A stretch of DNA of 56,378 nt from Trichodelitschia bisporula (Eukaryota): assembly GCA_010356995.1 (NCBI GenBank), contig ML996698.1, positions 62,001 through 118,378 of the forward strand, given 5' to 3'. Both the position numbers and the translations under genes were made by a program. Every line of letters begins with the position of its first letter. Positions within the stretch are counted from its first letter, which is position 1. This document shows, one piece after another, positions 3,962 to 47,859 of the stretch. Below the pieces are notes generated by a model that saw only the letters and a program-made list of their open reading frames with translations, did no database searches and was not told the origin of the DNA.

Positions 3962-6900
3962 TCACAACTCGTCATCGTCAAGCTCCGACGGCTTAAGCAG
4001 ACCGCCGACCTTCATCGCGCGCTCGCGCTCCGCCTCACGCGCCTGCTGGACAGCAAGCTCGCGCTCCTCAGCGAAGAGCTCGGCGTTGTCACCCGAGAAC
4101 TCCTTGAGCGAGATCAGGAAGTCGCGAAGCAGAAGCTTGAACCGGGCCTGGTCGTTGTTCGTTGCGAACAGGCCGGAGATGAAGTTGCCGATTTGGGTAC
4201 TGCAGCTGTTAGCCAGATCAAAGGTTAAAATGAAGAACTTACGGCGTCAGATTCGGGAAAGCCGTGATCAGCAGGTTGCCGACGTAGCCCCGAAGGAAGT
4301 CAGCGTTGGATGTGCCGGCCGGTGCCATCTCGGGAAGGTAGATGGGGCCGGTGATAGCGCCGCTCTCGACCAGGTTGAACATGCGCGCCAGCAGCAGGGC
4401 CTGCGACTTGAAGCCAGCCTTGTGATCGCTGTCGGTGAGCACGTAGAAGACATCCTGCAGAATGGTGGTATAGAAATTCTGGAAGAAGGCGTTGCAGATG
4501 GAGCGCTCCGCATTAGCCATGTTGTTGATGAGCTCGATGCACATAGTCAGACCAGCGCCCTCAACTTCACGGTTGTCATGCTTGCTAGCCCACACGCAGG
4601 CGTCGATAACCAGCTTAAACTGTGGACCGTCAAGCTTGAGCAGCGCATTGAAGCAGCTGTGGTTGATGGCCGTCAGCAGCTTGAAGAAGCCAACGCGGTG
4701 TTCGGGGTATTCCGAGAAGTCCTTGTTGATCATGTTCAACGTGCACTCGAACACGCTCTCGAGGATTGTCAGAACCTGGTCCTCCATCATGCCCTGCAGC
4801 TTGTTGATGATAGTGGTCATGACGTTCAGAACCTCGGGCTCACGAGCGTCAGGCAGATTGCGACGGTAGTCGGTGAGGACAGCCTCGAGGAGCTGCGGCA
4901 CCAAGTTGTTGTGAACCATCTCGTGGTCGTCCGTCTTCTCAACGTAGGTGTTGATCAGCTTCAGGATTTCCTTCTTGATGGTCCGCAGACCCCGCACCTG
5001 CGGCGTCTTCGTCGCGATGGGGCCGGAAGCCTGGACAGCACTGTCGATCAGGCCGCTCGTAGCATGGTACATCTTGAGCATGTCCAGGTAGATGCGGCCA
5101 ATCTGCGGGTAGAAGTAAGGACCGATAGAGCTACACGCCGCCACGTTGGTCTTCATGATGTTGCCAACGACCTTGATCGTGTCCGGGTCCTGGAGTGAAG
5201 CCGGGTTCTCGTTCGCGGCGGCGATAATCTGATCCCACGCGGAGTTCGGGATCGCCATAAGTTCGTTAATCAGGCGCTCCTGCATTCCCTTCTGACCCTG
5301 CGCGCTAATCATATAGCCGCAAGCTTCGTAGAAGGTATGAATCTGCTGGGGAGACAGATCACAGGTGGTGCGGCTGAGATTGCGCACAATCTCGTCGATG
5401 AACGGCTCGTGCTCGTTCGGCTGAATGGCAACGAAATGCCGCCGGCACTTGTTCGCAATCTTGATGAACGTGTCGCAGGCCATATCTTGGACACCTATGC
5501 AAAGTTAGTGTTGGTAGCCTTGTAGCAGTAGGAGACTCACCCTCGTGCGTCTCGTGCATGAATTCAAACAGCTTATTAACGACAGTCTTCAAGAACTTCC
5601 AGTGCGCCTTCAGGAAACGCGGATACTGGCCGACAATGTACATGATGTTGCTAGCAACAACAGCCTTGTTGTCCTTGCCACGCTTCATCTCGGTCAGGCC
5701 TAACAGATCCTTGATGACAGTGACTAGGAAGCGCTTTTCGGTCTCCTCATTCATGGCACCTGAGATGGAGCCGATTGCCCAGCATAGCGTGTTGCAGTTG
5801 GCCCAAGACCACTCCGAGCCGTCAACCTGGCGGGCAAGCTTCTCCGACATGATGGTCTCCGTGTCGTGGACGTCGAGATGGGTCAGGAAGACCAGGCACT
5901 CGCGCGTCGACTTGTAAAGCTGGATCGTGTCGGACTCCTTGACAAACTCACGCACAATCTCGCCCTCGTCATTCTCCACGATCAGGACTTCCTCTGGCCG
6001 CACCATCTTCTCGATCATGACAGTACGCAGGCTCGAGAGCACCTCGGAGTACTTGTGCTTGCGCAGCGGGAAGCCGCCCATAAGGTTCGGATCCCGAGCA
6101 CCACCGTTCGTTCCAAAGCCTGCGATACCGGTCATCTGGATGAGGCTAACCTCGCTGATCGGCAGCTGCTGCATCTCATCGTAGAGATCTGAGACCAGCT
6201 TGGTCCAGTACTCAAGGCAGATCTTGAAGATCTCACGGTCGTCGATCTGGCTTATGCGGATGAGATAGAAGTGGCCGTGTGTGAGGAAATCACGGTTGGG
6301 AAGATTCTCGATGGTCTGTGAGGAAAGCGCGTCAGCTACCATACGGCGGAAACGATAAAACCCTCTATAGTAATATTGGCACAGGGGACTTACAGCCAGG
6401 TGCATGGAGAAGAACTGGGTAAGGAAAAGCGCCAGATTCTGCACAAACTCCTGATCTCGGCCGTTGCTAGACGCGTACGTGGACTTGAGATCCAGGGAAA
6501 GGGGGATGATCTTGGAAATCGCTGTGAGAGTCTCGGTGAACATCAGCACAAGCTTATCACTGTAGCTGGGCTCTGAGTTTAAGCTCGCAATTTCGGTCAA
6601 GCACTTGAGCGTGATGTTGCGGAACTCCGGTACATCCAGGAAGCGGCTGCGCAATGTCTCGATAAGGCTAGGGGCGCCCGACGGCGGCGTCTCGAACACG
6701 TAACCGATCGGGATCCAGCTGAGAAAGCGCAGTAATGTCTCCAACGTCGCCTTGATGAGGCTAGCCTGGGAGGCGGTACGCAAAATCTCCGTACACAGCT
6801 GGTAGATGGCCGTGAATTCCGAGTTCATCGTATTCTTCAGCTCCTTCGCCTTGGTCGACGTCATCTGGTCGGCCGAAAACTCAAAGATCTCTTCCGACAG

Positions 6901-7549
6901 CAGACGCAGGATGGCCATGTTGTTCTCGCAGATTGGGATGCTACTGTGGCAGGACGTGATGATCTCGTTTATGAACGTCGGCCACTTGGCCGGCCACTCC
7001 TGTTTGAGGATGTTGATTAGGGTCATGTTGAGTTTGTTCACAAGCGTCCGTTGGCTGCGGAGGCTCTCCTCGGTCGACGAACACTGGATGATGAAGTTCA
7101 CCACGAAATTGCGGATGCCTGAGATGTTAGCCCGTGTCTGGGGGTGATAGGCGCACTAACCTTGACATTGATCGCGGGGAAGGACCTTCCAGCGGGTGGT
7201 GATCACATTGTCGAGAATCTGCAGGCCGATGTCTACGCCAGTTAGCCGATGTTTTCGCGTGTCTCACAATACGTACACTTGGTCTGTGGATAGCTAGCGC
7301 TATCTAGGATCTTGTCAACCAACAGCCACGAGTCGGGGTTCTCCTTGAACTAGACTGCGGTCAGAGGACATAACGGGGAGCAGCGACGGGACGACGTACC
7401 TGGTTGAGAGCTTGTTGAGCCTGCTTTTGCTGCCGGAACAGTTAGCATCAAGGAGCTCTATATGTGGCTAGAAGAACACAAACCTGCTCGCCGCGGCCCT
7501 CGAAGAAGGCGCGCACAGTGCTATCGAGATCCTCAATGGACATAGCCAT
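3962..7549 (-). CDS. CRM1: Exportin-1 (CRM1/XPO1/KapK), multi-exon
   Basis: It starts [22 protein letters not shown] and contains [85 protein letters not shown] and [11 protein letters not shown]. It ends [12 protein letters not shown]...[16 protein letters not shown] at 3962. GT-AG introns join the two long ORFs and the small 5' exons. Confidence 0.97.
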
Positions 7550-8895: not shown

Positions 8896-11800
8896 TCAAT
8901 TCAATGTCGACTTCCCGAGTTGCTGGAGGGTACCCCAGAACTCAAACCGCTCCTTCGTGCTCATGCCACCGAGGCTCTCTTTGCTCTGGTGACCCTCAGG
9001 GCCACCAGTCTGCGGTTGCGCCTGCACCTGCTCCCGCGGCTCGAGAATACACGAGCGGCGGTAGAACGACTGAATGCTAGCATCATTGCTGCGCACCCGC
9101 TGAATCTGCGAGTCCATCCAGTCCTGCATCTCCGGCACGGCCGCCAGCTTATACGGCACCTGGAACCGCTGCAGTTGGTCGATGATCTTAGCAACACGCA
9201 TGTACTTGTCGAAGTTGACGACCATGCGCGGCGGCGTGTCCGGATCATTCGCTGACACTGGCAGCTCGCGCATCTTCTGGTTGCCCGCGTCGACGAACGT
9301 CAGATCTGTGAGATAGATGCCGACGAAAGGAATGCATGGCGGGACGTGACCCTCCAGGCGCCGCCGCAGCGCAGCGTGGTTCCTGCTGCAGTCCACAATG
9401 GCCGTCAGTTCGTCGAAGCGACCCTTGGTTTTGGCAGACACCAGATCCCACGTCTTCCTCAGGCGCACCACCATACTCGACTGGAGCGCGCAGACAATGG
9501 CCATCAAAGAGTCGTAGTTGTGGAGGTCGAGGCATTTCATCGAGATCTTGATCCACTGCTTGATCACGAGAGCACGCTTCTTGGGCTCTTCAAGATTCAG
9601 GATGGAGTCGGTGACGAGGCTGGCAAGGTCATTAGACAGCTTCGACATGGCGCGAACGTTGACGGCGCGCGAATCGATCTTCTTCTGCCACTCGAGGTCA
9701 AGCAGCTCCTCTGGCGCAATGGAGCAGAAAATGCGCGACTCAATGATCGTAAATTGGCGCGCGATTTCTAGGGGGTCGAAATCGACAATGCTGCAGGGAT
9801 GTCCGCCGTTGCGAGCCGCTCGGAGGGCGCTTAGTTGGGATTTGGTCACGATCGGCACCGGGATCTCCTTTTCAGTGGAATTAAACAAGCTCACGGATGT
9901 ACTTGTGTGGCCCAGGGCTGAGATGAGGCGTGGCACGAGGGCTCCAGTGCGCAGGTCAGAGACCTTAGTTGCGAGTTCGGCGAGGCGTCGCCCCACTCCC
10001 GCCATCGGCGTTAACTGCAGCTGTGCGGCGAAATCCTGGATGATTGGTAGAGCCGCTGAGTCGCTCTCGCATTGCCAATGACTCTCGAGCCATCCCTTGA
10101 ACTGGTTGTAGACGCGCAGGCGGATAGGAACGCCAACCAGTGGGCTCTCGCCGGCGTATTCGTAACGCTCAACCAGGCAGGAAGCGAACTCAGAGGGCGT
10201 GGTGAACAGGCGGAAGGTGAGGTAGAAGGTGGCAACGAAATCGCCCTTCGGCGTGGACTCGTGGGTAGTAAGACGCTCGACAAGAGCCGGCAGCGAACCG
10301 CCGATAACGTGGCCAGCCTTGTTGTAGACGAGCTCATGGGCATACGTTTGGATAAGAACATGTTGCTCGGCACTGGTCTCGCTGTGGAGGGACTGCAGCT
10401 CGGCTGAACTTCCAATGCTGGCTATCATGGGGGTACTCTGCTGGGGAGAGCTTTCGGGCGTCGTGGCCCGCGTCGACGCCGACGCGAGTGACACGACGCT
10501 GCCATTTCTGGTCGGCAGGCTATTGCGCCACGAATCATCCGAGACAACGCCAGTGTTAAAGCTGTCGATCCGCACTTCACGCAGTTCGAAATCGGCCGAC
10601 TGTTCCGAGATGGGAGTATAAGTCGCCGACACGGACTCGGGCGCTGGAAAGTGAGGGGCGGGGAGTTGGTGAATTGAAGAGCGAGAAGAACGAGTGGACG
10701 CTGCTTTCGGGCTGTCCACAATGGTGACCTTGAGGCTCGGCTGAGGTTCCATAGGTGATGCTTTCGGCGTATCAGGTAAGGGCTTAGAGTCGGGGAGTAG
10801 AAGAGGCGGCGGTGGTGGTGGCCGCACGGTAGGTTCTGGCGGGGTTTCCGTAGGGGAGTTAAGAGGCTCCGAGGGAGGAGCAGGAAGCGGCTTATCGCAG
10901 AACAGAGAATGGCGTTCCGGCTTTGCGGGGTCTTCGTCTGACGAAGGCTGAGGGGTCTGCGCGAGTGTGTCGAAAACCGACTCCGCGAGCCCAAGACCGA
11001 CGTGTTCGAACTCAAAGTCGCCGATGCGCCCGATGGCAGTCTGAGCCTTGGACACGCACTCCCCCGCTGCACGGATACAGCTGGTTGTCGTCATGATCAG
11101 TTCCTTGCGACTGCCGACGACGTTCTCGCTCATCTCAGTCTGGTCGAACATGTCTTTGGTCGCTTGCACCAACTCCGCCAGCTTTGCGTACATGACGTCG
11201 CGAGCGTCGGCCAGGGCGTCGGATCGGCGGCCGTCGCGAGCCCATACCTCTTCAACGATGTCGAGAAGCAAACGGCAGGCAGTAACAGACTGGTCGGTGG
11301 CTGACTTGAGGTCGTCGTGCGGGCGTTCTGAGTAGTGCAACCCGATAAAAGTACCTAGCAAGCTTAGGAAAGAGTCGAGTGCAAGAGCGAGACGCTCCGA
11401 TGCAAGGTTCTTTCGTTGCGCGCTACCGCTGGCGTACGACAGGCGATGCGAGATTGAGATCCGCTTGGCCGGCAGGGATACCGGGCGCGCTACATGCGTT
11501 GGCTGGGCCACAACAGCGGCCGGCGCCAGTGCATGAATGGCGTCGAGCGGGGCTGTGCTGGCATAGGATTCTGAAGGTGACACAGGGACGTCGCTGTCCG
11601 ATGTGACGGGCGTTTGCTCGGGAACGAGTTCGCCATCCTGGTTGGCCGGCTCCTGCGCATCAACGGGTGGCGTGAGTGGTCGCTGATCGGAGTCAGGTAT
11701 GCTGTACCGCCGCGAGCCATAATGCTCGTTCCAGATGTCGAGGAAGCGGACCGCACGGACGACCACCCTGCATGCCTTGAGCACAAGGCTATCGAGCAAC

Positions 11801-18600: not shown

Positions 18601-19141
18601 AACTTTGAGGCGAAGTAAATGGGCTTGGGACGGGCGTATTTGCGTAACGTGGGAGGTTGCTTTTAGCGAGATCGGAGTTGTGGAAGGGAAATTTTGCCCA
18701 AATGGACAACTATGACGTTGCAGGCGCTGTCAGTCGTCCACTAGAATTGTTCAAGGCGGGTTATGGTCGCTATGTTTCTTCTACGAGCCTGACCCCTTTC
18801 TGGGTATCGGCTATGAATGTGATTCTTCGGGTGATATGGTTTGGGATGGCCTACGGCGGTACGTGGCCGAGCTGGAGTTTAGTTTGAACACATCAAGTGG
18901 CGAAGTCAGCGGGCCGGATATGTACTGGAGAGGGCGTGCGATGATATCGGATTGTTTCGGTGCAGCGCGTAGCCTTCGACACTCAGTGGTACGAGGCTGA
19001 GTCCTGTCACCACTGCTGGTCTGCGACGCCGCCATCCTCACGATCCATCTACCCGACCAAGTAACGGTGCCCCCAGACAGCCATGTATCAACAATATCCT
19101 GCCGAACAGCGCACGCCGACGCGCATGCTCACCCTCCCCAG

Positions 19142-20044
19142 CTACTGCAAGTCATCCATATCCTCCTCGTCCTCCTGGCCCCGATACCCCACCCTGCGCT
19201 CCTCCCTCTCCCTCTCCCTCCGAACCGCCTCCTTCGACGCGCCAATCTTCCTACACCCATTAGCACCCCACCCCACCATCCGCATCCACAGAGCACGCAC
19301 CTCAGTCCATCAACCACACCACCAATAAACGCCCTCCCCTCCGCAATCTCCATCCCCCCCACCCCATTCATCTTCACTCCGCCCCCCGCATCCAGCACCT
19401 CCACACCAGCGCGCACCTTCGCCATCCGCACCTCCCTCAAATCCCTCAATAGCCTTCTCACCGCATCTGGCTCCTCGAAATCATCCCCCGCCCCCGCGAG
19501 GAGTATCTCGCCCATCTCGAGCCAGTGATATGGGAGCGCGGTATCTGCTGCCCCGACCACGGAGGTCGGGACAAACGGAGGCGACGCAGCTTCATCGCGC
19601 AGGCTGGGCGGTGCGGGGGGCAGCGCAGGGCCAGGCGTGAAGGCAGCGGGGTACTCCGTTGTTTCGGACTCGAGGATCGTGCTCAGAGCCGCGGGGGCGA
19701 GCCACGGCGGCGGCGCGATGTTGGCTCTTTTTTGGCGCTTGAGGAGGAGGGCGAGCCAGAGGGGGAGGTTGGCGCGGAGGGGGGGGGTGAGGGGGGGAGT
19801 TGGGCCCTGGGTGTCGTTAGGAAAGCGGAATGTACGTTTAGGAATCGGACATGTACGTTTAAGAGTCGAATGCATGACTGTGACGGGACATACGGTTTGC
19901 GGGGCGGGAGATCCGCGGGGTTCAACTCACTCCTAGTAGGGTGTAGGCGTCTTGTTTTTGGCGGGGGATGACGGTTACGAGTTCCATTTCGCAGAGGAAG
20001 GAGACTTCGGAGGGGGTAAGGCCGGGGGGGGAGGGGTGCGCCAT
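19142..20044 (-). CDS. PSF2: GINS complex subunit Psf2
   Basis: [29 protein letters not shown]...[39 protein letters not shown]...[13 protein letters not shown]...[13 protein letters not shown]...[27 protein letters not shown]...DEEDMDDLQ*; two introns. Confidence 0.95.
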
Positions 20045-20208: not shown

Positions 20209-22102
20209 ATGGACGCGAATAGATATTTCGGTTCTTTGCTTGCGATTGTTGTCTCTGCTGCGATTCATAGATACCTTTTGATTTCGCCTGTCGTTTGGGT
20301 AGACGAGATGGACTACTTCGTCCGCAGACCGTATCTTGTCCGTCTCTATGAACTCTAAATTCATGCAGCTAACAATGTGCAGGATGAAGTCTTCCACGTC
20401 GGGCAAGCTCGATACTACTGCCTCACGCACAATTTCTCATGGTGGGATCCGAAGATCACGACTCCACCTGGCCTGTATGTTTTCGACCATATCTGGCCCC
20501 TGTCTAACAGCAGCAGCTACCTTCTCTCTTACGCGAAGTATCTCATCACAGGGCGGTGCTCAATAGACGCACTGCGGGAGCTAAACGCCAGCATCCTAAA
20601 CCTCTCCCTCGCCCCCATCGGCCTCGCCCTCTATCTCCTCTCCAACCGTGTATCAACCCTTCGCGCCTTCCTCCAAATCTTCCACACCAACGCCAACATC
20701 ACCAACTTCCCCCTCCTCTTCTTCTTCTCCGGCCTGTACTATACCGACGTAGCCTCAACCTTCTTCGTCATCCTCGCCTACACCGCATCTCTCCCCTCGG
20801 GCCACTCATTCCGTGTCCTCGAACTCGTGGCAGGTGCTGCGGCGCTCTGGTTCCGCCAAACTAACATTTTCTGGGTCGCTGTTTTTCCCGCTGGACTTAG
20901 GGTGGCGAAGGAGGTGCGTGAGTGGAATGAAGCGAGTCCCGCGGATACCAGCTTTGCGGGCGTGATTCAGGCGGCCTGGACCGAGGCGGCCGTGTATGAC
21001 CCCGCCGTTGGCGACGCGGAGTTCGAAGATTACATCAAAGCCGCCCTCTCCATCGCCCTCGTCGCCGCCCGGCAACCGCACCGTCTCCTCCTCCCCCTCT
21101 TCCCGTACCTCACCCTCCTCGCCGGCTTCGCCAGCTTCGTAGCCTGGAACGGCGGCGTCGTGCTCGGTACACCCCTTTCCATGTTTCCGTGTCATGCTAC
21201 GAGTCTTGCTAACCCCCACAGGCGACAAAAGCAACCACGTCGCCACAATCCATCTACCACAAATGCTCTACCTCTGGCCCTTCATGCTCTTCTTCTCATT
21301 CCCGCTTATCATTCCGCCCTTCGCCAGCCGGCTGATCGATGCATTCCGCTTACCGGCGCCGCGGCGCCTCGCGAATACGGGGATTTTCCTGGCGTGTACG
21401 GGGCTGGCGCTGGCGGCGGTGCATTGGAATACTATTGTTCATCCGTTTACGTTGGCGGATAATAGGCATTATGTGTTTTATGTGTTTAAGATCCTGCGCA
21501 CTTACCCGCTGTTGAAGTATCTGGCGGCGCCGGTATATGTTGTTTGTGCTTGGGCTACGATATCGGCACTGGGGCATTCAAGGGCGGTGGCGGGGGGTGG
21601 AGGAGGGAAGGCCGTGTCAAGAGCGCAGAGGATATGGGAACCGAAGGTCATTGAAGCGGAGGTCATTGAAGCGAAAGTCATTGAACCGGAGATCATTGAA
21701 CCGAAGGTCATGGAGCCGAAGGTCATTAAACCGAGGGTCATTGGAAAAGAGGTGGCCAAGGCAAAAACGGTGATCCGGACAAGCAAGGACGAGCCAGAGC
21801 TGGAGTACTCGCAGCAGCAGCCAAATGCGAGCTTTGTGCTCGTCTGGCTGGCAGCAACAGCCCTCTCTCTGGTGTCTACAGCCCTGGTGGAGCCGCGGTA
21901 CTGCATCGTGCCATGGGTGATGTGGCGGCTACGCGTTGCCAGCAAGGTAGAGGGGACGTGGGGATACAAATGGTACGACTTCCGACTGGTGGCAGAGACG
22001 GTTTGGTTCTATGTCATTCAGGATGTTACGGGGAAGGCGTTCTTGCATCATGGGTATGAGTGGGCTAGCGAACCGGGAGCGGTACAACGGTTTATGTGGT
22101 AG
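20209..22102 (+). CDS. ALG10: Dol-P-Glc alpha-1,2-glucosyltransferase Alg10/Die2
   Basis: [76 protein letters not shown] and C-terminal QRFMW*. The start is inferred from the in-frame ATG at 20209 upstream of a GT..CAG intron. Confidence 0.95.
21638..21742 (+). repeat. 15-bp coding tandem repeat, 7 units (EPKVI-like), inside ALG10
   Basis: Units such as gaaccgaaggtcatt / gaagcggaggtcatt / gaagcgaaagtcatt / gaaccggagatcatt translate to [35 protein letters not shown]. Confidence 0.9.
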
Positions 22103-22934: not shown

Positions 22935-24925
22935 ATGAGCAGCCTCCTCACAGCATTCATCCTCGCCCCCGTCCGCCGCTTCACAACCCCGCAACAGGCG
23001 CAACCACACCCCGCACCCAACCATGCACATGCGCAATCACATGCCAATCCCAAACCGCCCCCCGACACAGCGATAATACCCCCGGGCTCCCCTGCGCGCG
23101 ACCGCGCCCAGTCTTCCTTCGACCGCTTTGTGCCCCTCCTGCCCGTGGAGTCCACGCCCACAACCACAGCCATGCCGCTCTCATCCTCCCCCCCAGCCGA
23201 CCCATCCGACCCCTCCGATCCCGCGCCCATCGCCATGCGGCTAGCCCTCGCAGACGCCCCCCCCCAATCCTCCCTCCCCGCCGACGACGGCATGCGCGGT
23301 CTCCGCAAGCGTATCCATGAGATACGCGATATGCGCGCGAGTGCGCCGGAGAAGGCGCAGGCGATGCATGCGCTTATGACGCAGAGCTGGCAGGCGGCGA
23401 GGGGGGCGGGGAGTATAGGGGGTGAGGGGGGGCATGTGTGTCATGCTGGGCATGGTGGGCATGGTGGGCATGCTGAGTATGTGGGTGCGGAGGGTGGGGG
23501 GGTGGGGGTGGATATTACGTGCTCGTCGCTCGCATGCTCGCCGCGCTCAGTGGGGCGCGGGCGTGAGATCGAGGGCGAAGAAGTGCGCTCCGGCGGAGAT
23601 CCGGAGTGGAATGTGCGGCCGCAGGATTTACGAAGAGTTTACAGGCCGCGGGTCGAGGGGGAGGAGGAGGAGGAATTGGTGCTTGGGTGCCGGCATTACA
23701 AGCGCAATGTCAAGGTGCAGTGCTACGACTGCCGGGCGTGGTATCCGTGTCGGCATTGTCACGACGAGGGGGAAGGGCATGCGCTGAACCGGCGCGCGAC
23801 GGAGAATATGCTCTGCATGCTGTGTCTCACGCCCCAGCCTGCGGGGCAGTATTGTCGCAGTTGTGGGGGGCGGGCGGGGTGGTATTACTGCGATATATGC
23901 AAGTTGTGGGATGATGATGGGACGAAGAGGATATATCACTGCGGGGACTGTGGGATTTGTCGGAGGGGTGAGGGGCTGGGGAAGGATTTTCAGCACTGCA
24001 AAGTAGGTCTCAGTTCTCCGATATATCGTTTGCCGGGCTAACGTGGGACAAGAAATGCAACGTCTGCATCTCGATCCAGAACTTTGCGACGCACCGCTGC
24101 ATCGAGCGCGCGACCGAGTGCGACTGCCCCATCTGCGGCGAATACATGTTCACCTCCGCGCTCGACATCGTCGCCATGCCCTGCGGGCACTACCTCCACG
24201 CCGCGTGCTACACCGCTTACATGGCCACGGCGTACAAGTGCCCCATCTGCAAAGCCTCGGCCGCGAACATGGAACTCGCGTGGCGGAAGTTGGATAGCGA
24301 GATTGCGCGGCAGCCGATGCCGCGGCAGTGGGCGGATACAAGAGCGGATGTCCGGTGTAATGATTGTGGGCATGCGAGTGTTGTGCCGTATCATTGGCTG
24401 GGGTGTAAGTGTGCTGTTTGTGATGGGTTTAATACGCTGGAGGTTAGGCTTTTGGCTGCCGAGCGAGTTGTGCGGGATGTGGAGGATTTTGCGCGCAGGG
24501 AGCGGTTGGCGGCTGAGAGGAGGGAGGGGCAGCGCGGGGAGGGGGTGCGCTCGACGGTGCTTGCGGCGAGGCCCGCGGGGGGATATTTCCAGACTGCGGA
24601 GGAGGAGAGGGGCCGGGCGGGGAATGAGCAGGGCTTGCTTGAGGGATTTAGGCCGATGGAGATGATGGCGCGGTTTGGCGCAAGGAGTTTGAGTCCTATA
24701 CGGCATTATTTTGAGGAGGAGGAGGAGGTGGGGAGTGAGGATGATGATGAAGAGGAGGGGGGGGGCGGGATTTGGGGGGAGGAGGGGTGGTTTTTTAGCG
24801 AGGAGAGTGAGGGGGAGGGGACGGATGAGGAGGTGGATGTTTTTGGGGGGGAGGAGGGGGAGAGTGAGGATGAGGATGGGGATGGGGGGGGGAGGCTGGA
24901 TTTGCAGCTTATTGGGCATCGGTGA
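22935..24925 (+). CDS. CHY zinc finger and RING finger protein (Pirh2/RCHY1-like E3 ligase)
   Basis: GCRHYKRNVKVQCYDCRAWYPCRHCHDE (zf-CHY), YYCDICKLWDDD..IYHCGDCGICRRG, RING CPICGEYMFTS...MPCGHYLHAACY...YKCPIC and zinc ribbon CNDC...YHWLGCKCAVCDGFNT. One intron near 24004-24051; acidic C-terminal tail. Confidence 0.93.
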
Positions 24926-31053: not shown

Positions 31054-32770
31054 ACCCCACTTAAGAGAGAAGGTAAGTGGCTAATCCCTACATGAGCATG
31101 AGCATCCCCTCACACTACCTCAAGCAGGGGATAATGCGTATTCTTGGGCTGAGTGGGAGGAGTGTTAGTCTTCGAGGTTGAGGGGAGAGTGCGGCGGGGG
31201 GTGTGGCGAGAAAGTCTTTGGGCGGGCACAGCGGAGATGAGCGCAGGATTGGGGCGGAGGGGGTTGTGACGGAGAACTAAAGGTGTAAGTTGGCTGGGAC
31301 AAAAGGCTCCAGACGCGCGGATTCTCCGCTTCGGCGTTTGCTCTCTGGTTCCGAGATCCGGTTTTCGGCTTCTTTGCCCGGGCTTGAAGGTATCCGAAGC
31401 CGGAGGTACACGGTAATGGAACGGAGTTCAGGCGTCCTCGTGCTTTCGGCGCTTGCGTGGTCGGGAAGCTTTACACCCCTGGCAATGTGCCTGGGCGGGG
31501 AGTCGGTTGGCTGCGGCCGTCGGCACGTCGGAGGCGTAGTGAAGGTGCCGGGTTTCGGGATGCCGACATCGCCGAGCCGCATCCCGAGTTTAATTTATGG
31601 GAGACACCACCGTCGATACCGACGGGAAAACAAACTGGACGTTTATTCTACTGGCATATATACTACGCATGCCCCGCGGTCACAACCATGTTGCTAACAG
31701 CGTGATCGGAGGAGTTCCAGCTCAGTAATTGCGGGCCACGGGACGGACGACCCTGGTGGGGCCTGGGGTTCAAAGCCAGACGGAGGATATGCGTCTCTTG
31801 GACCATGACCATACAGAGGCTGATGGTTCTAGGACCTGGATAGAGAAAAGGTTGCTTCTATCTTTAACGGCGATGCGTGTATTCCGACAGTCAGCTTGAC
31901 CAGCCAGTCCACGAGCAAGAGGGCGACCGCCAAAACCTCTCAGATTGCACGGTGGGACCGTGCTTCGAGTGAACTCGAACTTTCATTCCACCCTTAAGGT
32001 TCATAATGGGACCACTTCACTGCACCATGCAGAGGATGACGCATCTCGTTCCCAATTCCGCGCCCGTCGGCGGCAGAGTCGGGCCCAAGGGTAAGTTGAG
32101 CGTCACTGCTGCCCGGCGGATGCGTATTGCATGGCGACTGGGTACTCCACGCGGGAGAGGGCCAGGCCGCAGCGGCGAGCAATCGGGGTGATGACATTAC
32201 GACGGGGGAGGAGTACAGCGAAGCTCCGGGTCTCCATTTCCATCAACAAGACCGATCTGAGGAACTGATATGGTTCCGTGAGACCGGCAACCGGGATGGC
32301 CTAGACGCGGCTGGTACGCTTGCCACGATTTCATCAGGGATTCCACCTGGCTGACCTGTTGCCGGTGCTGTACTGGCATGGGCTGCAGATGTGAGCCAGT
32401 GCTTCTAGTTTCCCTTGGAGTCGCTTACTCCCCTCCGTTGTTCAGTGCGACCTCGCCTCGTGCCCGTTCCCAAGCTCTCTGAATCATGGATCCCGTCGCT
32501 TTATAGCATGTCCGCTTTCCATGGTTCGACAGCTCACCGCAGTCATCCTCCCCCCCAATGACGACACTCTCTGCGTCACTCCCACGTGGCAGTCCACGCG
32601 GCCCTACGGCTATCAATGAAGAAGTTCGAGAATCTAGTAAAGTCAGTCGGAGTCCCCCATCTCCGCCACGGCTTGGCTTTGGCATATATACTTCCCCAAG
32701 ACGCAGACATCTCCCAGGATTTCCTCCAACACCATGCGCACCTCACACCTCACCACCACCCCCCATCACA

Positions 32771-35700
32771 ATGTCTGACCCCTCCTTACCCCGCTGCTAC
32801 TGCCCAAATAGGTATGAGTCCGGCGTTGGGCTCGACCCAATAACACACGACGACACAACCATGTTTCCGAACTACGACTCCGCGGACTTAGCTTGTCGCC
32901 ATCAAATATGCTGCTACCTCAACATCTTGAGCGGAAGGGGCGTCCACCGCGCTCTAGAGGCACCCGTCTACAGCGCCTCGCAGACCCCCCTCGGCATTGC
33001 GGTCGGTGACGATGACGATGACGAGGACGAAAAGGGCGAAGACGACGAAGAGGACGACGACGTCGAGTACAGTGACGAGCCGTACGGCAACTATTACATC
33101 GACTCAGAAGGCGATGTCGAGATCAAGTTGTTCGGCTCCAATCGCGGGCTGCTCGGCTCCAATTCCGCGTTGCTCGGCTATAATCACGGGTTTTACAGCT
33201 CCAATCCCGCGTTGTTCGGCTTCATTTCCGCGCCATTCGACTCCAATCCCGCGTTGTACGAACCCGATATCGACTCTCCCCTGGAGCAGATGGCTGCAGA
33301 TATCCAGTCCCGCAAAGAAGACGCTAAATCCACCGGAAAAACTGGTATAGAACCGGGGTAAGCCTCTAGACGCGCAATCCCGCGGACGTCTGAAATAACC
33401 GATAGATTTGGCTGACAGAATTGCTTGTAGACACGAAGCCGGGCGGGCCGAGCGGGAAGAGTCCAATGCTGAGCTCGAGCGTGTCGACTACAATTCAACG
33501 AGCGATGCCGACCCCACATCATTCGGCTCCGAGCCTAGCATGGAGCGCGCCAGGTTCGCCAACCTAATACAGCAGCTGGACGCCACAATTGACCGCTGTA
33601 AAGCTTGCGCCGCAACACGCATCCGCCGCTCCAGCTTAGTTGACCGTCCTATCTTCAAGCAGATACTTGCGGACATCGACGACATCGACGTGGAATCCCC
33701 CGATGAAAATGAAATAGAAGAAGGGTATGCCTCCCGGCCCGTAGTCCGGCAGACGTGCGGAATACCCGGCAGGTTTGGCTGACAAGATTGCTTGTAGCTT
33801 CGAAGCCTGGTGGGCTGAGCGGGAAGAGTCTAATGACGAACCCGAGCGTGTCGATCACAATTCCACGAGTGATGGCGAGCCCACGTTGTTGGACTTCGAT
33901 TCCAGCACGGATCTCATCTCGCGCGCCCACGACGACCACGATGACCACGGTAACGACGAAAACAATGAGAACGACGATGTCGAGTCCGATGACGATTCCG
34001 ACCGCAGCGAGTACAGGCTCACGTTGTTCGGCCCCGATCGCGGCACGCCTATCACCCCGGGCGCCGACGATGACGAGCCCAAATTCAGTTTTATGGACTT
34101 CTACAGCGACATCGAGTCCTGGTTGCGCAACCTCGATCCCACCGCGGATCCCGCCTCGCGCGCTGGCCGACGCCGACTGCTGGCCGCCATCCGCGACCAG
34201 CTCTACAAGGAATACGGCCCGCACAAGGGCCATCCTTTGGACTCATTTGCCCACACGGATCCCAGCCCGAACGCCTGCCAACGCCGGGACGCCATCGGTT
34301 ATCTGTTCAGCAGGGACGCCGACGAGTTGAGGTGGGAGCGCGACCTCATCGATCGTGATATTATGAGCGAGGTCGAGCTTGCCGAACGTCGTCGATGGGA
34401 GGACGGCTGCCGCCCAGCTATCCTCGCCATGACTGTCGGCTTCACCGATCGCCCTGAGGGACCCGACCCCGGCGCCTGCGAAACACCCCACTCTCCCTTC
34501 GAGCAGATAGGTCCAGACAGCCAAATCCGCGAACCAGACGCGGAACCCATCTCCGAAACAGGAACAGAACAGGGGTATGTCTCCAGACCCGTAGCCCTGC
34601 GGACGTGGCGGAAAAGCCGGCAGATTTGACTGACAAAACTGCTTGTAGATACGAAGCCGGGTACAAAGCCGGATACGAAGCCGGGTACGAAGTCGGGCGG
34701 ACCAAGCGGGAAGAGTCGAATAATGAGCCCGAGCGCATCGATCACAATTCAACAAGCGATGGCGAGCTCACGCCGTTTGTCTTCGATCCCAGCATGGATC
34801 TCACCTCACGAGCCAGCCAACTTCGACTGTTGGAGGTCATCCTTGACCAGCTCGACATATATGACCGCTCCAGCGAAGCCGAGCGGGTCGAGCGGGAAAA
34901 GTCTAACGATGAGCCCAAGCGCATCGATCACAGTTCAACGAGCGATGACGAGCTCCCGTTGTCCGGCTCCGACACCGGCACGGATATCACCCCGCGCGCC
35001 AGCCAACTTCGACTGCTGTACGCCATGATTAAGGGCTTCAGCACTCGCCGGGTGGCACCGGTCCCCCCCTCCCGCCCAGTCAGCCATCGTACGGTCGGCG
35101 AGCAAATGGCTGAAGACACTCAAACCCGCGAAGGAGGCGCGGGACCCACCGGTGAAACAGGAAAAATGGGGTACGCCTCCAAACCCGTAGTCCTACAGAC
35201 GTGCGAAATAACCGGCAGATTGGGCTGACATAATTGCTTGTAGATCCGCAGCCAAGCGGGCCGGGCGGGAAGAGCCGAATAATAAGCCAGAGCGCATTGA
35301 TGACCATCTAACGAGCGATGGCGAGCTCCCGTTGTCCGGCTCTAACACCAGCACGGATATCACTTCGCGCGCCTTCCAACATCAACTGCTAGACGCCAGG
35401 ATTAAGTGCATTAACACTCGCCGGGCGGCACCTGTCACCCCCTCCCGCCGAGTCAACCATCGTACCATCGGCGAGCAAGTAGCTGAAGACATCCAAGCCC
35501 ACGAAGGAGGCGCGGGACCCACCCGTACAATAGGAGAAATAGGGTACGCCCCCAAACCCATAGTCCTGCAGACGTGCGAAGTAACCGGCATATTTGGCTG
35601 ACAAAATTGCTTGTAGATCCGCAGCCGAGCGGGCCGAGCTAGAAGAGTCTAATAACGAGCCCGAGGGCATCGATCAGGACTCAGCGAGCGATGATGAGCT

Positions 35701-36141
35701 CCAGCCGTTCGTCCTCAATCCTAGTATAGATCCAACCTCGCCCGCCAACGAAATTCGAGTGCTGAACGCCATGATTGACCGCTGCAGCGCTCTCTCCGCA
35801 GCACTCAACCGCAGCTGCGGCGCAGGCGACCTCCGGACCTTTAGTCGGATAATTGAAGCCATGCCCCCCGTTCCCGAAGTAGACTTGGAATCCATCCATG
35901 GAATAGGACTACCGCTTGAGTATGCCTCCAGACCCCGTAGTCCCGCAGACATGCGGAACAACTGGCAGATTTGGTTAACAAATTTGCTTCTAGAGACGAA
36001 GCCGGGCGGGCCGAGCGGGAAAAATTGCGTGCGAAGGCCCGGGCGGAATGGTCCCCCCCAGACCCGCCGAGCACGGAATACTTAAGACAACTGCAAGCGG
36101 CCTTGACTAGTTTGAGGGAGAGTACTGAAAGGCGGCCATGA
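32771..36141 (+). CDS. Hypothetical 976-aa acidic, internally repetitive protein; 7 exons separated by six homologous phase-2 introns
   Basis: Introns at 33358-33430, 33725-33797, 34575-34648, 35171-35243, 35544-35616 and 35920-35993 (73-74 nt, GTA(T/C/A)G...RYTRAC...TGCTT(G/C)TAG). Removing them gives an open frame of 2931 nt from ATG 32771 to TGA 36141. Confidence 0.78.
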
Positions 36142-36569
36142 GGGAATTGATGGAGGAATTCATGCCATCCTACGTTGGCGTGCTGCAACATGGAGGCGAG
36201 AAATGATGCTTGAGTAAGAGTTGTAGGAGCTGTTATATCCAGACTGAGCGAAGGGTTGGGACTTGCTGGTATTCATGTATGGAGTGTTGTCGTGATTACC
36301 GTGGCCTTGCCCCGCAGTTGTGGCGCCCCGCACGACCGCTTGCCGATCTCCCGCCCGGGCCGTGCGGGACTCCACTGGGGCTAGTGCAACACCAAATTCA
36401 GTCCGTGCAAAAGAAGCTCGAAGATCATGAACCTAATCTGTCATAAATCCACGCCTGCAATGTATAAAACAGTGACCCACCCCCACCAACACCCGTCCCT
36501 CCTAGCAAACAAATGGTATCCCAGAACGCCCGCCCACCCAGGTCCTCAAAGACTCCACCAACTCTTACT

Positions 36570-37955
36570 CTACTCGCCAGCAGCCCCAATCCGCCCCCCC
36601 CTAACAACCCCAACAGACACACCTCCCTCCCCCGTCATCCACCCCGGCATCCTCGCCCCATCAACAACACCCTGCTCCACCAAGCTCCTCAATCCCGCAA
36701 AAACATGACCGCCTACAAAACTCACCCTCACACTCGGTTCAAACGCGTCTCCGGAGTCATGGCCATCGAACCCATCTTTGATCCGCACGTCAAAGCGCTC
36801 AACGCCCTTGCCATCACCGGGGACGCCGTACGGGCCGAATCGACCCTCTGCGACCTTTTTCAGGCGCTTGCGTTCGGGTGCGGAGGCGGGGAGGCCGAGG
36901 CGCTTGAGTGTGCCGGTCTTGATCCTGTCCTCATCCTCCTCATCCTCCTCCCATCCCTCCTCCCCCCCACCGGCCTTGAAATCCAGCGCATCCCCCTTCT
37001 CCTTCTCCCCCGCATATCTCGCCCACCCCCCCGCAACATTCGGCCCCGCCCCCCTATGCGCGAGCAAAGCACCCAAACTCCTTGCCGACAGCCCACTAGG
37101 CACCATCTCATACCCGCCCAGTGCCGCCCCGACCGCCTCAACCACAACACGCATCTCCGACCCCGGCGCACCAGCCGCCCTCGTACTCCCCCTTGCATTC
37201 GCCTCCGCAGCCGCGGCGGAGGCAGTCGAGGAACCCGTTGGTAAAGCGAAGTAGACGAAGGGCGTGGCGCGGGGGAAGGCGACGAGGATAGTTTTTGGGG
37301 CGGGGAGGGGAGGGGTTGAGTACGGTGTGCTGAAGAGGGAGAGGTGCAGGAGGGTTAGGGGGAGGGAGGGGGGCGTTGTGAGGTGGGTGTGGATTTTGAA
37401 GAGTGGGGCGAGGAGGGATTCTAGTGCTGTGATGAAGGTAGGAGGCGGGAGAGGAGGGAGGGGGGTGGTGTCGGTGGGTGGAGGCGTGTCAGTGTCGGGG
37501 TCGGTTTTGCGTCGCCGTGAGACGCGCAGGACTGTCCACCGTACATTGCCGCCGTCCGCGTGGTCGGCTACCCATTGTGCGTCTGCCATGGCGAGTTGTC
37601 GGAGGGAAATGCCGTGCCGCCAGTCAGATTCGAGGACGCGCTCCAGGAGAGCGCGCTTTGTGCCGCGCTGAGTGGGGAGCTCTTCTTTGTAAAGATCGTG
37701 GAGTTCTTCGATAGAGGCGGCGGCGGGGTAGGGCGCTTCATCGTCCTCGTCATCCTCGTCGGAAGGTTGGAGGTAGGGCCCGCAGGAGGGGAAATTCGCC
37801 TCCGAACACCATTCTGCGCAGAGGGCGAGGAGGGAGGCGCGTGAAAGGCGGGCGAGGTTTTTTTGGACGTGTGGACTGGAGCTGGGGAGGCGGAGGGAGG
37901 GGGAGAGGGGGGCGGTAGTTGGGATTGCCTTCGGGCGGGGTGGTGGTGGTGGCAT
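36570..37955 (-). CDS. CHL4: Inner kinetochore protein Chl4/Mis15/CENP-N
   Basis: LARLSRASLLALCAEW, KRALLERVLESDWRHGISLRQLAMAD, SLGALLAHRGAG...GGWARYA and C-terminal SFVGGHVFAGLRSLVEQGVVDGARMPGWMTGEGGVSVGVVRGG, all typical of fungal CHL4-family proteins; single exon. Confidence 0.88.
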   Translation of the reverse strand: MPPPPPRPKAIPTTAPLSPSLRLPSSSPHVQKNLARLSRASLLALCAEWCSEANFPSCGPYLQPSDEDDEDDEAPYPAAASIEELHDLYKEELPTQRGTKRALLERVLESDWRHGISLRQLAMADAQWVADHADGGNVRWTVLRVSRRRKTDPDTDTPPPTDTTPLPPLPPPTFITALESLLAPLFKIHTHLTTPPSLPLTLLHLSLFSTPYSTPPLPAPKTILVAFPRATPFVYFALPTGSSTASAAAAEANARGSTRAAGAPGSEMRVVVEAVGAALGGYEMVPSGLSARSLGALLAHRGAGPNVAGGWARYAGEKEKGDALDFKAGGGEEGWEEDEEDEDRIKTGTLKRLGLPASAPERKRLKKVAEGRFGPYGVPGDGKGVERFDVRIKDGFDGHDSGDAFEPSVRVSFVGGHVFAGLRSLVEQGVVDGARMPGWMTGEGGVSVGVVRGGRIGAAGE

Positions 37956-42920: not shown

Positions 42921-43510
42921 TCACCTCCTCGCCTCCCACCGAAGCTGGGCACGAGCCATACCTCCCATCACCACATCCAACGCCTCCTGTGGCGCAAACC
43001 TACCCATCCGCACCATCGTCATTATCTGGGTTGGATCTACCCGCGCCGTAGACACAATTAAATCCTCGAGCATCTCCATCTCGACCTCTCGCGACAACCA
43101 AGGGGGGATTGACGCATTCCCTTGGCTGCCTCATGCACCGCATCCGCCCATGTAATCTCGCCCCGCCGCACCCGGGGCACCAACGGCTCTGGATCCCGCC
43201 CACACTCCATACAGACCTCCCTCACAAGATTATCCTGCTGCTCAGCTCCACCTCCGCTCATCTCACCTTCCCGAAGCATCCCACGAGCCGCTTCCCTCAA
43301 CCTTGCATCCAACGCATCTTGGTAGGTAATCCTACCCGCCCGCACTTCTAGCAGCGCCGCCTCCGGATCCGCCGCCATGCTCATCATAAGCATCCTGAAA
43401 ATCTCCTCTTGCCTCTGCCGGGAAGTTCTTCCGGCACCGTGACCGTTCCCGCCACCCGGGCATCCACCACTTCTTCCAGTGTAACCTTACCCATCCGCAC
43501 ATTCTGCAGT
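42921..43510 (-). pseudogene. Frameshifted continuation of the RQC1 reading frame (repeat units 2-5)
   Basis: Translating across three frameshifts gives LQNVRMGKVTLEEVVDARV / EEIFRMLMMSMAADPEAALLEVRAGRITYQDALDARL / VREVCMECGRDPEPLVPRVRRGEITWADAVHEA / LEDLIVSTARVDPTQIMTMVRMGRFAPQEALDVV...RR* at 42921. Confidence 0.6.
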
Positions 43511-45553
43511 CTCCTGGAGATCAGTCTCCGTCTTGCAGTACTGCTGCAGAACAGCCTCCTGGTGCTTCGTGACCGTCACCGGTTTGTCCTCATCGTCATC
43601 CTCATCGTCATCCTCGGCCTCGTCCTCACTAGGCAGCTCCTCAACCACTCGCTGCACCCTCGAATTCAGCGCCCCATTCAACGTAAGCTTCGTTTTAACC
43701 TCCTTCATGAGGGCATTCACATCCACCCCGGCATCATCCGCGTCTTTCAAAAATACCTTCAAAAACTCATCTGCGTCCGCCTCGGTATGCTCCGGCGCGT
43801 CCCAATCCCTCTCATCCTCGTCCGTCGGCGGGAGCGGATCCACGGCCGTCAACTGGCCCAGTTCGCTCTCTTGTATCGCCATCGGTAGCATGCGTAGGAC
43901 CTCGTCATCGCCTAGCCCGAAAACGTGCCGCCGCACCGAGGGCCGCACCTCCTTGTTGTCACCTGGGCGGACTACACAAAACCGATACGGAGTTAATGGG
44001 GCCGCGACGCGAATCAAGAAGGCCTTGGTTTCGGGTACAGCCCACAGGTCGCGCGTACGCCGCACATACATATCAGTGAAGAAATGCATTGCTGGAGTCG
44101 GAGGGGAGATGCCCCAGATGCCCTTGGGGGCGATGGCATCAAGAGCCGTGAAGATGGCTGGGAAATAGTAGGGGTGCATTTTGACGACTTTATCGAGCTC
44201 ACGCTTCGCATTCTCCTGCTGATTGAGCTGCAGGTAGGCAAGGATGCGGTCGAGTTGAAGGTGCCCGTGGTCATCAGCCTGCCAAAGATTGGCTCTCAGG
44301 CAGTCATATAGCTGCAGGAAGTGCTTCGACATATCGGCGCGTACGGCTAGTTGGCCGTAGAACAGGAACAGGGCCCAAGGATCGGCGGGATTGAGAGCGA
44401 AGAGCATGGTGGCCCATTCATACGCAGTGCGGTAGGCGGAGCGCCTGCTTGAATCAGCATGGGCAAGAAACGGAGTGCCGAAACTTACCCCATCAGATCG
44501 AGGACGTAGTGGAACGCGGCGTTGAAAAACTCTCGGTTCTCATACACATCGAAATCCATCCTCGCCTTCCCGTTCTCTAGGTCGGTCACGAAACGTTTAC
44601 TCGCTGCGCGGCCAAAAGTGAACAGAGCCCGTTCAAGCCATTCACTAGCCTCGGTGCGGTTGTGGCTACTGCGCTCGCTATCGGCAACGATCAGCAGCGT
44701 TGCCGCGTGGTATGCTGTGTACGTTGAGCCTGGACGGTCCTCGCTTCATAGGGGGATAGGGGTACCTACGGTGTTTGTAAAGCACCTCGTGCAGTAGTTG
44801 AAAGTCGGCGGTTACAACAGCCTGCTGGCATAGCTCCTGTGCCTGTCGATAGTCGCCCCTGTGTATAAAACGATAGGTCGTGATGCCGTTTTCGCCAGGC
44901 ACTCCTTCCATCTCAAGTCCACTATGTCCCGCAGCGCTCGGCCAGGTGGACTTGCCACGGATGAAGGGGTTGAGGCGGATAAGCGCAGGGGAGAGCTTCG
45001 GCTCTTGTCTCCAAGCTGGCTGGTTGTTACGGCGACCCTGGGCGGGCGGCGCCTCATCTTCGTCGACGATGCGGCCGAAAAGCCGACGCATCTCGGTCTG
45101 GACCTTGAGGTCCTCAGTTTCAATAGAGAAAAGCTCCTTGAGCCAGGTATCATCTTGATCGTGAACTTGCGGGTCGCTCGCCTTCGACTTGCCCTTCTTC
45201 TCAGCCTCAAGGCCCTGGAGGATGACGTCGATGTCATCTATGGGATCGGCGGCAACCTGCTCCTGCTTCTTCTTGGCCTTGCGCTTCCTCTTTTTCTTCG
45301 GCTTGTCCTGCTTCACTTCAGCAAGGGCTTCAGCGGGCTTGGTGTCTTCGGCTCCTGAAGCCGCCTCTTTCGCGTCATCGACATCATTATCGGAGCAGAG
45401 CGATGCAAAGACGTTCGCTATCCGAGATTTTGGAGGGCGGCGCTCGGTGTTGAGCTTCTGCTCTTCAGCATTAGGGCTCCCTTCTCTAGAATCGAGCTTC
45501 TTCTTTTCGAGATCGCGCTGCGCCTGGGCGCGGCGGACCTGGCGAGTGGACAT
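43487..45553 (-). CDS. RQC1: Ribosome quality control protein Rqc1 / TCF25 (Nulp1) family
   Basis: MSTRQVRR start and Lys-rich PKKKRKRKAKKK, then EMRRLFG, YRFIHRGDYRQAQ, HPYHAATLL, WLERALFTFGRA, GKARMDFDVYENREFF and YRTAYEWATMLFALNPADP. Introns at 44769-44715 and 44488-44445. The true C-terminus is uncertain (see findings). Confidence 0.85.

Positions 45554-46496: not shown

Positions 46497-47859
<1,363 letters not shown>

Follow-up and report, generated by a model that had tools for sequence, protein, structure and literature searches.

A probable lineage-restricted ascomycete gene for an acidic repeat protein, likely grown by duplication of exon and intron blocks

Gene structure and reading frame

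This report deals with a repeat gene of the fungus Trichodelitschia bisporula, located at positions 32771 to 36141 of a stretch of 56,378 nucleotides (nt) from the forward strand of contig ML996698.1 (assembly GCA_010356995.1, contig positions 62,001 to 118,378); the whole stretch is called the window in the following, and all positions refer to it. A first-pass annotation, made from the letters alone, had proposed here a hidden gene interrupted by six copies of the same intron. We consider it likely that the locus represents a single lineage-restricted ascomycete gene, which encodes a very acidic repeat protein and has grown by duplication of blocks consisting of exon plus intron.

The six elements have lengths of 73 or 74 nt (Table 1) and pairwise identities of 73-90%. 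All of them start with GT and end with AG, the acceptor reads TGTAG in five copies and TCTAG in one, and a branch motif is found approximately 14 nt 5' of the acceptor, CTGAC in five of the six and TTAAC in the remaining one. A CTRAC-like branch motif shortly before the acceptor is the consensus of fungal introns. A profile made from the six copies was searched with nhmmer against the window and returned exactly these six (E values 3e-24 to 1.2e-21, next match at 0.62). On sequence grounds, the similarity among the six intron copies is far beyond chance.

The lengths of the exons that remain after intron removal place all six introns in phase 2 and make all five internal exons multiples of three. 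The joined exons form one frame of 2931 nt, corresponding to 976 amino acids (aa), in which the sole stop is the terminal codon, and the remaining five frames contain 18-56 stops each. The same pattern is found exon by exon: in exons 1 to 6 only the predicted frame is free of stops, with 1-11 stops in the other two, and in exon 7 the only stop in the predicted frame is the terminal one. Hence, the six elements of the first-pass annotation, including their starts, consensus, GT, branch and TAG signals and phase 2, were confirmed in every detail, and its single long frame with symmetric internal exons was reproduced. The conserved motifs it had described are present as well: EAGRAEREESN..EPER.DHNSTSD is found at exon starts, and EQ...D.Q.RE......GETG..G closes four of the six exons that precede an intron.

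Table 1. Features of the repeat gene and of its surroundings, in window positions
Feature	Position	Strand	Evidence or remark
Transcribed leader 5' of the ATG	32696..32770	+	RNA contigs (records 10 and 15) continuous from 32696 into exon 1
Exon 1, 587 nt	32771..33357	+	open frame; continuous in RNA contigs
Intron 1, 73 nt, GTAAGC..CTGAC..TAG, phase 2	33358..33430	+	excised in X3 and X4
Exon 2, 294 nt, module M2	33431..33724	+	end-to-end cover by X3 record 10
Intron 2, 73 nt, GTATGC..CTGAC..TAG	33725..33797	+	spliced and retained X3 contigs; spliced in public model P0001
Exon 3, 777 nt	33798..34574	+	module start, then unique insert of about 480 nt, then module end
Intron 3, 74 nt, GTATGT..CTGAC..TAG	34575..34648	+	sequence; retained form only, X3 record 13
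Exon 4, 522 nt	34649..35170	+	12-nt GYEA repeats, truncated module M4a, full module M4b; no intron between the modules
Intron 4, 73 nt, GTACGC..CTGAC..TAG	35171..35243	+	sequence; 90% identity to intron 5; retained form only, X3 record 14
Exon 5, 300 nt, module M5	35244..35543	+	duplicate of M4b and the youngest one; nt identity 81%, period 373 nt
Intron 5, 73 nt, GTACGC..CTGAC..TAG	35544..35616	+	sequence; retained form only, X3 record 14 and X4 record 21
Exon 6, 303 nt, module M6	35617..35919	+	C-terminal half M2-like
Intron 6, 74 nt, GTATGC..TTAAC..CTAG	35920..35993	+	sequence; retained form only, X3 record 14 and X4 record 21
Exon 7, 148 nt including stop	35994..36141	+	module start, then unique tail
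Probable 3' untranslated region	36142..36370	+ (strand not visible from contigs)	X3 record 14 ends at 36370, X4 record 21 at 36301
CHL4/CENP-N	36570-37955	-	E 2.6e-74; convergent with the repeat gene
Exportin CRM1	4239-7026	-	neighbour
RasGEF	8896-11193	-	neighbour
GINS Psf2	19129-19875	-	neighbour
ALG10	21194-22102	+	neighbour
CHY zinc-finger protein	22935-24041	+	neighbour
TCF25	43487-44407	-	neighbour
Anp1	46754-47446	+	neighbour

RNA evidence for splicing

Four public sequencing runs cover the locus and were compared over positions 32400-36500. Runs X1 and X2 stem from one DNA sample, which is possibly the source of the window itself. Runs X3 and X4 stem from one other sample of a single study; their label as RNA is a guess, and they are available as contigs only, from which strand and abundance are not readable and minor isoforms are dropped. 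X3 and X4 nevertheless contain spliced RNA, because skips with GT..AG ends are present there and missing from X1 and X2.

Intron 1 was found excised at the exact predicted bases in a contig of X3 (255 letters on the shorter side of the joint) and in one of X4 (29 letters). Intron 2 is exactly excised in a 59-nt contig of X3 (depth 5.5) and retained in another X3 contig of 132 nt (depth 8.58). The RNA contigs are thus in agreement with the earlier prediction of six spliced introns regarding the first two copies; introns 3 to 6 were seen in the retained form only, which is weighed below. The first-pass annotation had furthermore suggested that exon skipping could generate modular isoforms. No exon-skipping joint occurs among the X3 and X4 contigs listed, and such isoforms remain a matter of frame arithmetic only. 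Likewise, no forms with more or fewer modules were detected in the DNA runs, i.e. in one DNA sample.

At the 3' end, the depth in X3 drops to zero in 36373-36500. At the 5' end, two further ATG codons are in frame with the one at 32771, namely at 32558 if the RNA is unspliced and at 32617 after a skip of 62 nt, and any of these three may be the true start codon. The 62 nt in question (32634-32695) are skipped in both RNA runs, with no retained form among the contigs shown. Its ends (CT..CC, or GG..AG when read on the minus strand) are canonical on neither strand; the skip could be an unusual splice, or the RNA and DNA samples could differ by an indel of this length. Further upstream, 46 nt at 32383-32428 are missing from contigs of X3 and X4, and their ends CT..AC read on the minus strand as those of a canonical GT..AG intron. 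Hence, the gene overlaps at its 5' flank with a spliced antisense RNA or an upstream minus-strand RNA; the minus strand upstream of the gene yielded no convincing open reading frame (ORF). Within exon 5, the X2 contig is broken at 35386-35460 by minor-variant contigs (44-61 nt, one or two other letters, depth 6.5-16, compared to 157-171 for the main form), which could be low-level heterogeneity or sequencing error.

The predicted protein and its homologues

Asp and Glu make up 21% of the residues of the predicted protein, which carries a net charge of -103 and is rich in Ser, Arg, Ala and Pro. It is probably mostly disordered. As to its role, we would guess at a scaffold or binding protein that is rich in charge, evolves fast and has no enzymatic activity. 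When exon 3 alone was modelled with AlphaFold2 from the single sequence, the mean predicted local distance difference test score (pLDDT) was 43.8 and the predicted template modelling score (pTM) 0.22, with four predicted helices. No Pfam domain reached its cut-off in any of the seven exon translations, in line with the earlier remark that no known domain is recognisable. Matches to CC2-LZ (21.3 bits, cut-off 35.3) and Rubis-subs-bind (14.8 bits, cut-off 21.6) stayed below threshold and were treated as noise.

Searches for homologues led back to the locus itself. With exon 3 as phmmer query against 1.84 billion representative proteins, the sole match was P0001, a public call of 346 aa from this very locus, and exon 1, compared with proteins of 107-342 aa, retrieved only the locus's own 196-aa call P0002. 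No homologue of exon 4 was found among proteins of 95-303 aa, the ESM Atlas contained no usable neighbour of exon 3, and all 244 peptide-pattern matches of exon 3 in metagenome contigs failed confirmation by tblastn. P0002 consists of exon 1 and a read-through as far as the stop of intron 1. P0001 uses a different start within exon 2, has intron 2 spliced and runs to the stop in intron 3. Moreover, no public protein of 453-2000 aa scores against exon 3, which is why the 976-aa model appears to be unannotated. The term hidden gene is hence appropriate, as the public calls cover the locus only in the form of these two fragments. The locus is an orphan gene in a region of the core genome, and its neighbours (Table 1) are conserved housekeeping genes, of which CHL4 points to Ascomycota.

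Origin by duplication of exon and intron blocks

The similarity among the copies is not restricted to the introns. The repeat families D1-D4 and D7 continue in register through the exon flanks on both sides of the introns: D1 (six copies, 153 nt) lies 3' of the intron, D7 and D2 lie 5' of it, and D3 comprises three copies of 300 nt at a spacing of 373 nt. When the sequence was scanned at an offset of 373 nt, the region 34870-35260 matched its neighbour with an identity of 0.7-0.93, and the match continued unbroken from the exon across the intron (introns 4 and 5) to the beginning of the following exon. The closest pair of modules, M4b and M5 (0.81 nt identity), coincides with the closest pair of introns, 4 and 5 (0.90). 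Because the repeats are in register on both sides of the introns, whole blocks of exon plus intron appear to have been duplicated in tandem, and the cassette origin proposed in the first-pass annotation is supported by the homology of the introns together with their co-duplicated flanks.

We assume a founder in which one module and one short phase-2 spliceosomal intron made up a block of approximately 370 nt. Repeated tandem, i.e. segmental, duplication of this block would have produced the six diverged sister introns, and in-frame insertions and deletions would have followed the several duplication rounds. The modules now differ by 19-43% at the nucleotide level and occur in two C-terminal flavours, one shared by M2 and M6 and the other by M4b and M5. 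The junction between M4a and M4b in exon 4 contains no intron and shows a spacing of 186 nt (D1), which would fit the duplication of a partial unit.

Smaller repeats exist as well. In exon 1, which also contains an acidic run, 5-7 tandem copies of a 21-nt unit (family D6, 33127-33273) encode a repeat of seven residues, (L/F)(F/L)G(S/Y)N.., and exon 4 opens with short tandem repeats of 12 nt (34649-34700), which give rise to GYEA/GYKA units that are absent from the other modules. Repeat-induced point mutation has left no sign at the locus, judging from ordinary indices (TpA/ApT 0.65; (CpA+TpG)/(ApC+GpT) 1.05) and from the ratio of 41:25 between transitions and transversions in the youngest duplicate pair.

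Evidence against this reading and alternative explanations

Several observations weigh against a gene of 976 codons that grew by plain block duplication, and they are considered here together with the explanations that they favour. The most serious one concerns the 3' half. Intron 3 was seen only retained (X3 record 13, 33797-34993), and X4, which has no cover over it (34556-34662), is silent on its splicing. Intron 4 is retained in X3 record 14 (35079-36370, depth 22), introns 5 and 6 both in this contig and in X4 record 21 (35192-36301), and no joint across introns 3 to 6 exists among the X3 and X4 contigs listed. Hence, the full-length mRNA for 976 aa is unobserved. The unspliced contigs could stem from an antisense RNA or from residual DNA. 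Furthermore, the ratio of non-synonymous to synonymous substitution rates (dN/dS) is close to 1 between full modules (0.87-1.31) and falls to 0.4-0.8 in the N-terminal 45 codons, and as judged from these comparisons the constraint on single residues is weak.

These observations would be expected if the cassettes had the origin described above but the 3' half were not productively spliced. The products would then end at the stops of retained introns after 196, approximately 312 or approximately 570 aa, and exons 4 to 7 would either belong to a long 3' untranslated region or persist as a relic in decay. The retained contigs and the dN/dS values near 1 speak for such truncated products, and so do the ends of the public calls P0002 and P0001 in introns 1 and 3, the absence of exon 4 from public proteins of 95-303 aa, and the finding that read-through of a retained intron meets an in-frame stop within 1-19 codons in introns 1 to 5 (a retained intron 6 shifts the frame). 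However, the very frame that splicing dictates is free of internal stops in exons 4 to 7, compared to 29 and 16 stops in the other two frames summed over the four exons. In 3000 simulations with unconstrained substitution (10-20% per lineage), the 420 codons of these exons stayed free of stops in 4.2% to 0.27% of the cases, so that the probability of the open frame under neutrality would be 0.042-0.003. The five internal exons, moreover, all have different lengths, the differences are all multiples of three, and length differences of 1 nt occur only in two introns. The missing joints are in turn weak evidence, given that contigs drop minor isoforms. Altogether, we regard truncation of the product in the 3' half as unlikely.

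The frame of exons 4 to 7, the exon lengths and the restriction of 1-nt indels to introns rather suggest that all six introns are removed in the product under selection, which would comprise 976 aa from the ATG at 32771, while the splicing of introns 2 to 6 may be inefficient or regulated. What appears to be maintained by selection is the frame together with the start of the module, and not the majority of the residues. A conserved frame with loosely constrained residues is typical of disordered repeat proteins.

A related speculation starts from the better conservation of the introns compared to the neighbouring synonymous sites: selection would act on the intron copies as such, and they would serve as regulated, detained introns in series, whose graded retention sets the number of translated modules. 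In the sampled condition the corresponding gradient would consist of an intron 1 that is removed, an intron 2 that is partly removed and introns 3 to 6 that are mostly kept. If true, the gene would produce a ladder of 196, approximately 312, approximately 570 and up to 976 aa, or it would be shut off by nonsense-mediated decay. We consider this decidedly improbable.

The remaining objections concern the introns themselves. When the splice signals are left aside, the similarity of the intron columns amounts to 0.78 and 0.81, compared to 0.69 and 0.67 for third codon positions in the neighbouring modules; a column bootstrap gave P values of 0.026 and 0.0015 for this excess. Plain co-duplication does not predict introns that are more alike than third codon positions. 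Moreover, the six introns are approximately 1.6 times as long as the few other intron candidates in the window, one of 46 nt verified by RNA and four of 43, 44, 46 and 52 nt recognised by pattern. The exportin gene contributed one of the length comparators, as its two ORF pieces require the removal of one short intron at 5486-5540 on the minus strand (46 or 55 nt, GTGAGT..ACTAAC..AG) to be continuous; a fifth pattern-based candidate of 78 nt was set aside because it lies inside an intact ORF. Finally, the search for intron copies spans the 56-kb window only, and copies in unrelated genes are possible.

Such features could point to a mobile 73-nt element that was introner-like, low in copy number or reverse-spliced within the same transcript, and that entered pre-existing modules, so that the introns would be younger than the modules. 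In addition to their conservation and length, it can be mentioned in favour of transposition that approximately half of the published intron duplications within the same gene lack duplicated flanks and may be transpositions, according to the part of the fungal survey drawn on here (PMC3609843). Against it stands that every copy is flanked on either side by exon repeats that are in register and that the youngest duplication continues through the intron without interruption. In this youngest pair the intron identity (0.90) does not exceed that of the best exon windows (0.87-0.90); the excess conservation is hence modest and concerns the older copies. It could result from splicing constraint on short introns, from local gene conversion or from fast-evolving exons. 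Furthermore, no other copy was found in the window by profile search, and a degenerate pattern of the 3' half of the intron had no exact match in metagenome contigs.

The introns also lack the stable, covarying fold of a structured element. Compared to shuffled sequences, the z-scores of their fold energies are -0.05, -0.56, -1.25, +1.12, +0.54 and -2.68, i.e. only one copy folds clearly better and the other five lie between -1.25 and +1.12. The consensus fold reaches -9.79 kcal/mol with a covariation term of +0.86, and one of its 21 pairs is compensatory. No Rfam family was matched at threshold; a match to GlsR13 inside exon 3 remained far below it (20.2 bits, threshold 100) and was rejected. 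Taken together, insertion of a mobile intron into existing modules appears very unlikely to us.

That the locus is no protein-coding gene at all but a transcribed non-coding tandem repeat, whose long frame is open by chance, would agree with the missing homologues and domains, the low-confidence structure model and a guanine plus cytosine content of 58%, which favours long chance frames, but it can hardly be credited in view of 976 stop-free codons compared to 18-56 stops in the other frames, of exon indels that keep the frame, and of two frame-restoring excisions at the exact bases in RNA.

Possible significance

If the preferred reading of one gene enlarged by exon and intron blocks holds, the locus would provide a clean and datable case in which a compact fungal gene went from one intron to six by unequal duplication and without a mobile element, with the intron-less partial duplicate of M4a and M4b as an internal control. 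It would also exemplify how automatic annotation splits such a gene into fragments. Sister introns that are more conserved than the surrounding coding sequence are of interest for intron evolution. Moreover, near-identical introns in one transcript, which appear to differ in their excision, offer a natural test of the effects of position and sequence on splicing efficiency.

Comparison with known systems

In animals, genes for modular repeat proteins contain symmetric exons of the same phase that were multiplied by unequal crossing-over, and skipping or recombination of these exons keeps the frame. The locus described here shares the multiplied symmetric exons of equal phase, but it is a compact fungal gene with introns of 73 nt, and the multiplied unit is an orphan disordered module instead of a folded domain.

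A second comparison is offered by the Rogers model, in which the tandem duplication of an exon segment containing AGGT creates a new intron from exon sequence. Tandem genomic duplication raises the number of introns in both situations; at our locus, however, an existing intron would have been copied together with its exons. The creation of an intron out of duplicated exon sequence was considered for this gene and rejected, as the intron profile matches the six introns only and no exon with E < 0.6. Parts of two reports describe such creation by tandem duplication, Hellsten et al. 2011 (PMC3265369) and the case of the potato RdRp (PMC4974935).

For fungi, the part of the survey by Collemare, van der Burgt and de Wit 2013 (PMC3609843) used here divides multi-copy introns into duplications within the same gene (SGD), introns of low copy number and introner-like elements (ILE). 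The ILEs of Dothideomycetes are described there, and in part of a second paper (PMC4457414), as present in unrelated genes at copy numbers from tens to hundreds, with approximately twice the length of regular introns and with stable structures that show compensatory changes. The repeat gene resembles them as a family of similar, canonical GT..AG introns which adds introns to genes, and its introns are longer than the other candidates in the window, by a factor of approximately 1.6 relative to few comparators. The introns of the repeat gene differ from ILEs by their co-duplicated flanks, by the absence of copies outside the gene within the window and by the lack of stable structures with compensatory changes.

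The closest match is found with the SGD introns. According to the same part of the survey (PMC3609843), 82 of them are spread over 11 of the 24 species, no species having more than 16, their length and fold energy resemble those of regular introns, and approximately half have duplicated exon flanks, which was read as segmental duplication within a gene; it also refers to a gene of Cryptococcus neoformans in which several introns of this kind were derived from exonic repeats. On sequence features, the locus would fit this segmental class in two respects, as the similar introns are confined to one gene (within the window) and their exon flanks are duplicated; the ordinary fold energy is a further likeness. 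It differs by the number of copies, six in a single gene compared to at most 16 per whole species in the surveyed data, and by their divergence, the copies being no longer near-identical but already 10-27% apart. Moreover, the introns are better conserved here than the adjacent synonymous sites, and RNA contigs show the excision of copies 1 and 2 only. Regarding the route to intron gain claimed in the first-pass annotation, duplication did raise the number of introns, but the route belongs to a class already described in fungi (PMC3609843, in the part cited above). The mechanism of intron gain at this locus is hence not new, and the repeat gene of T. bisporula represents a rather large example of it.

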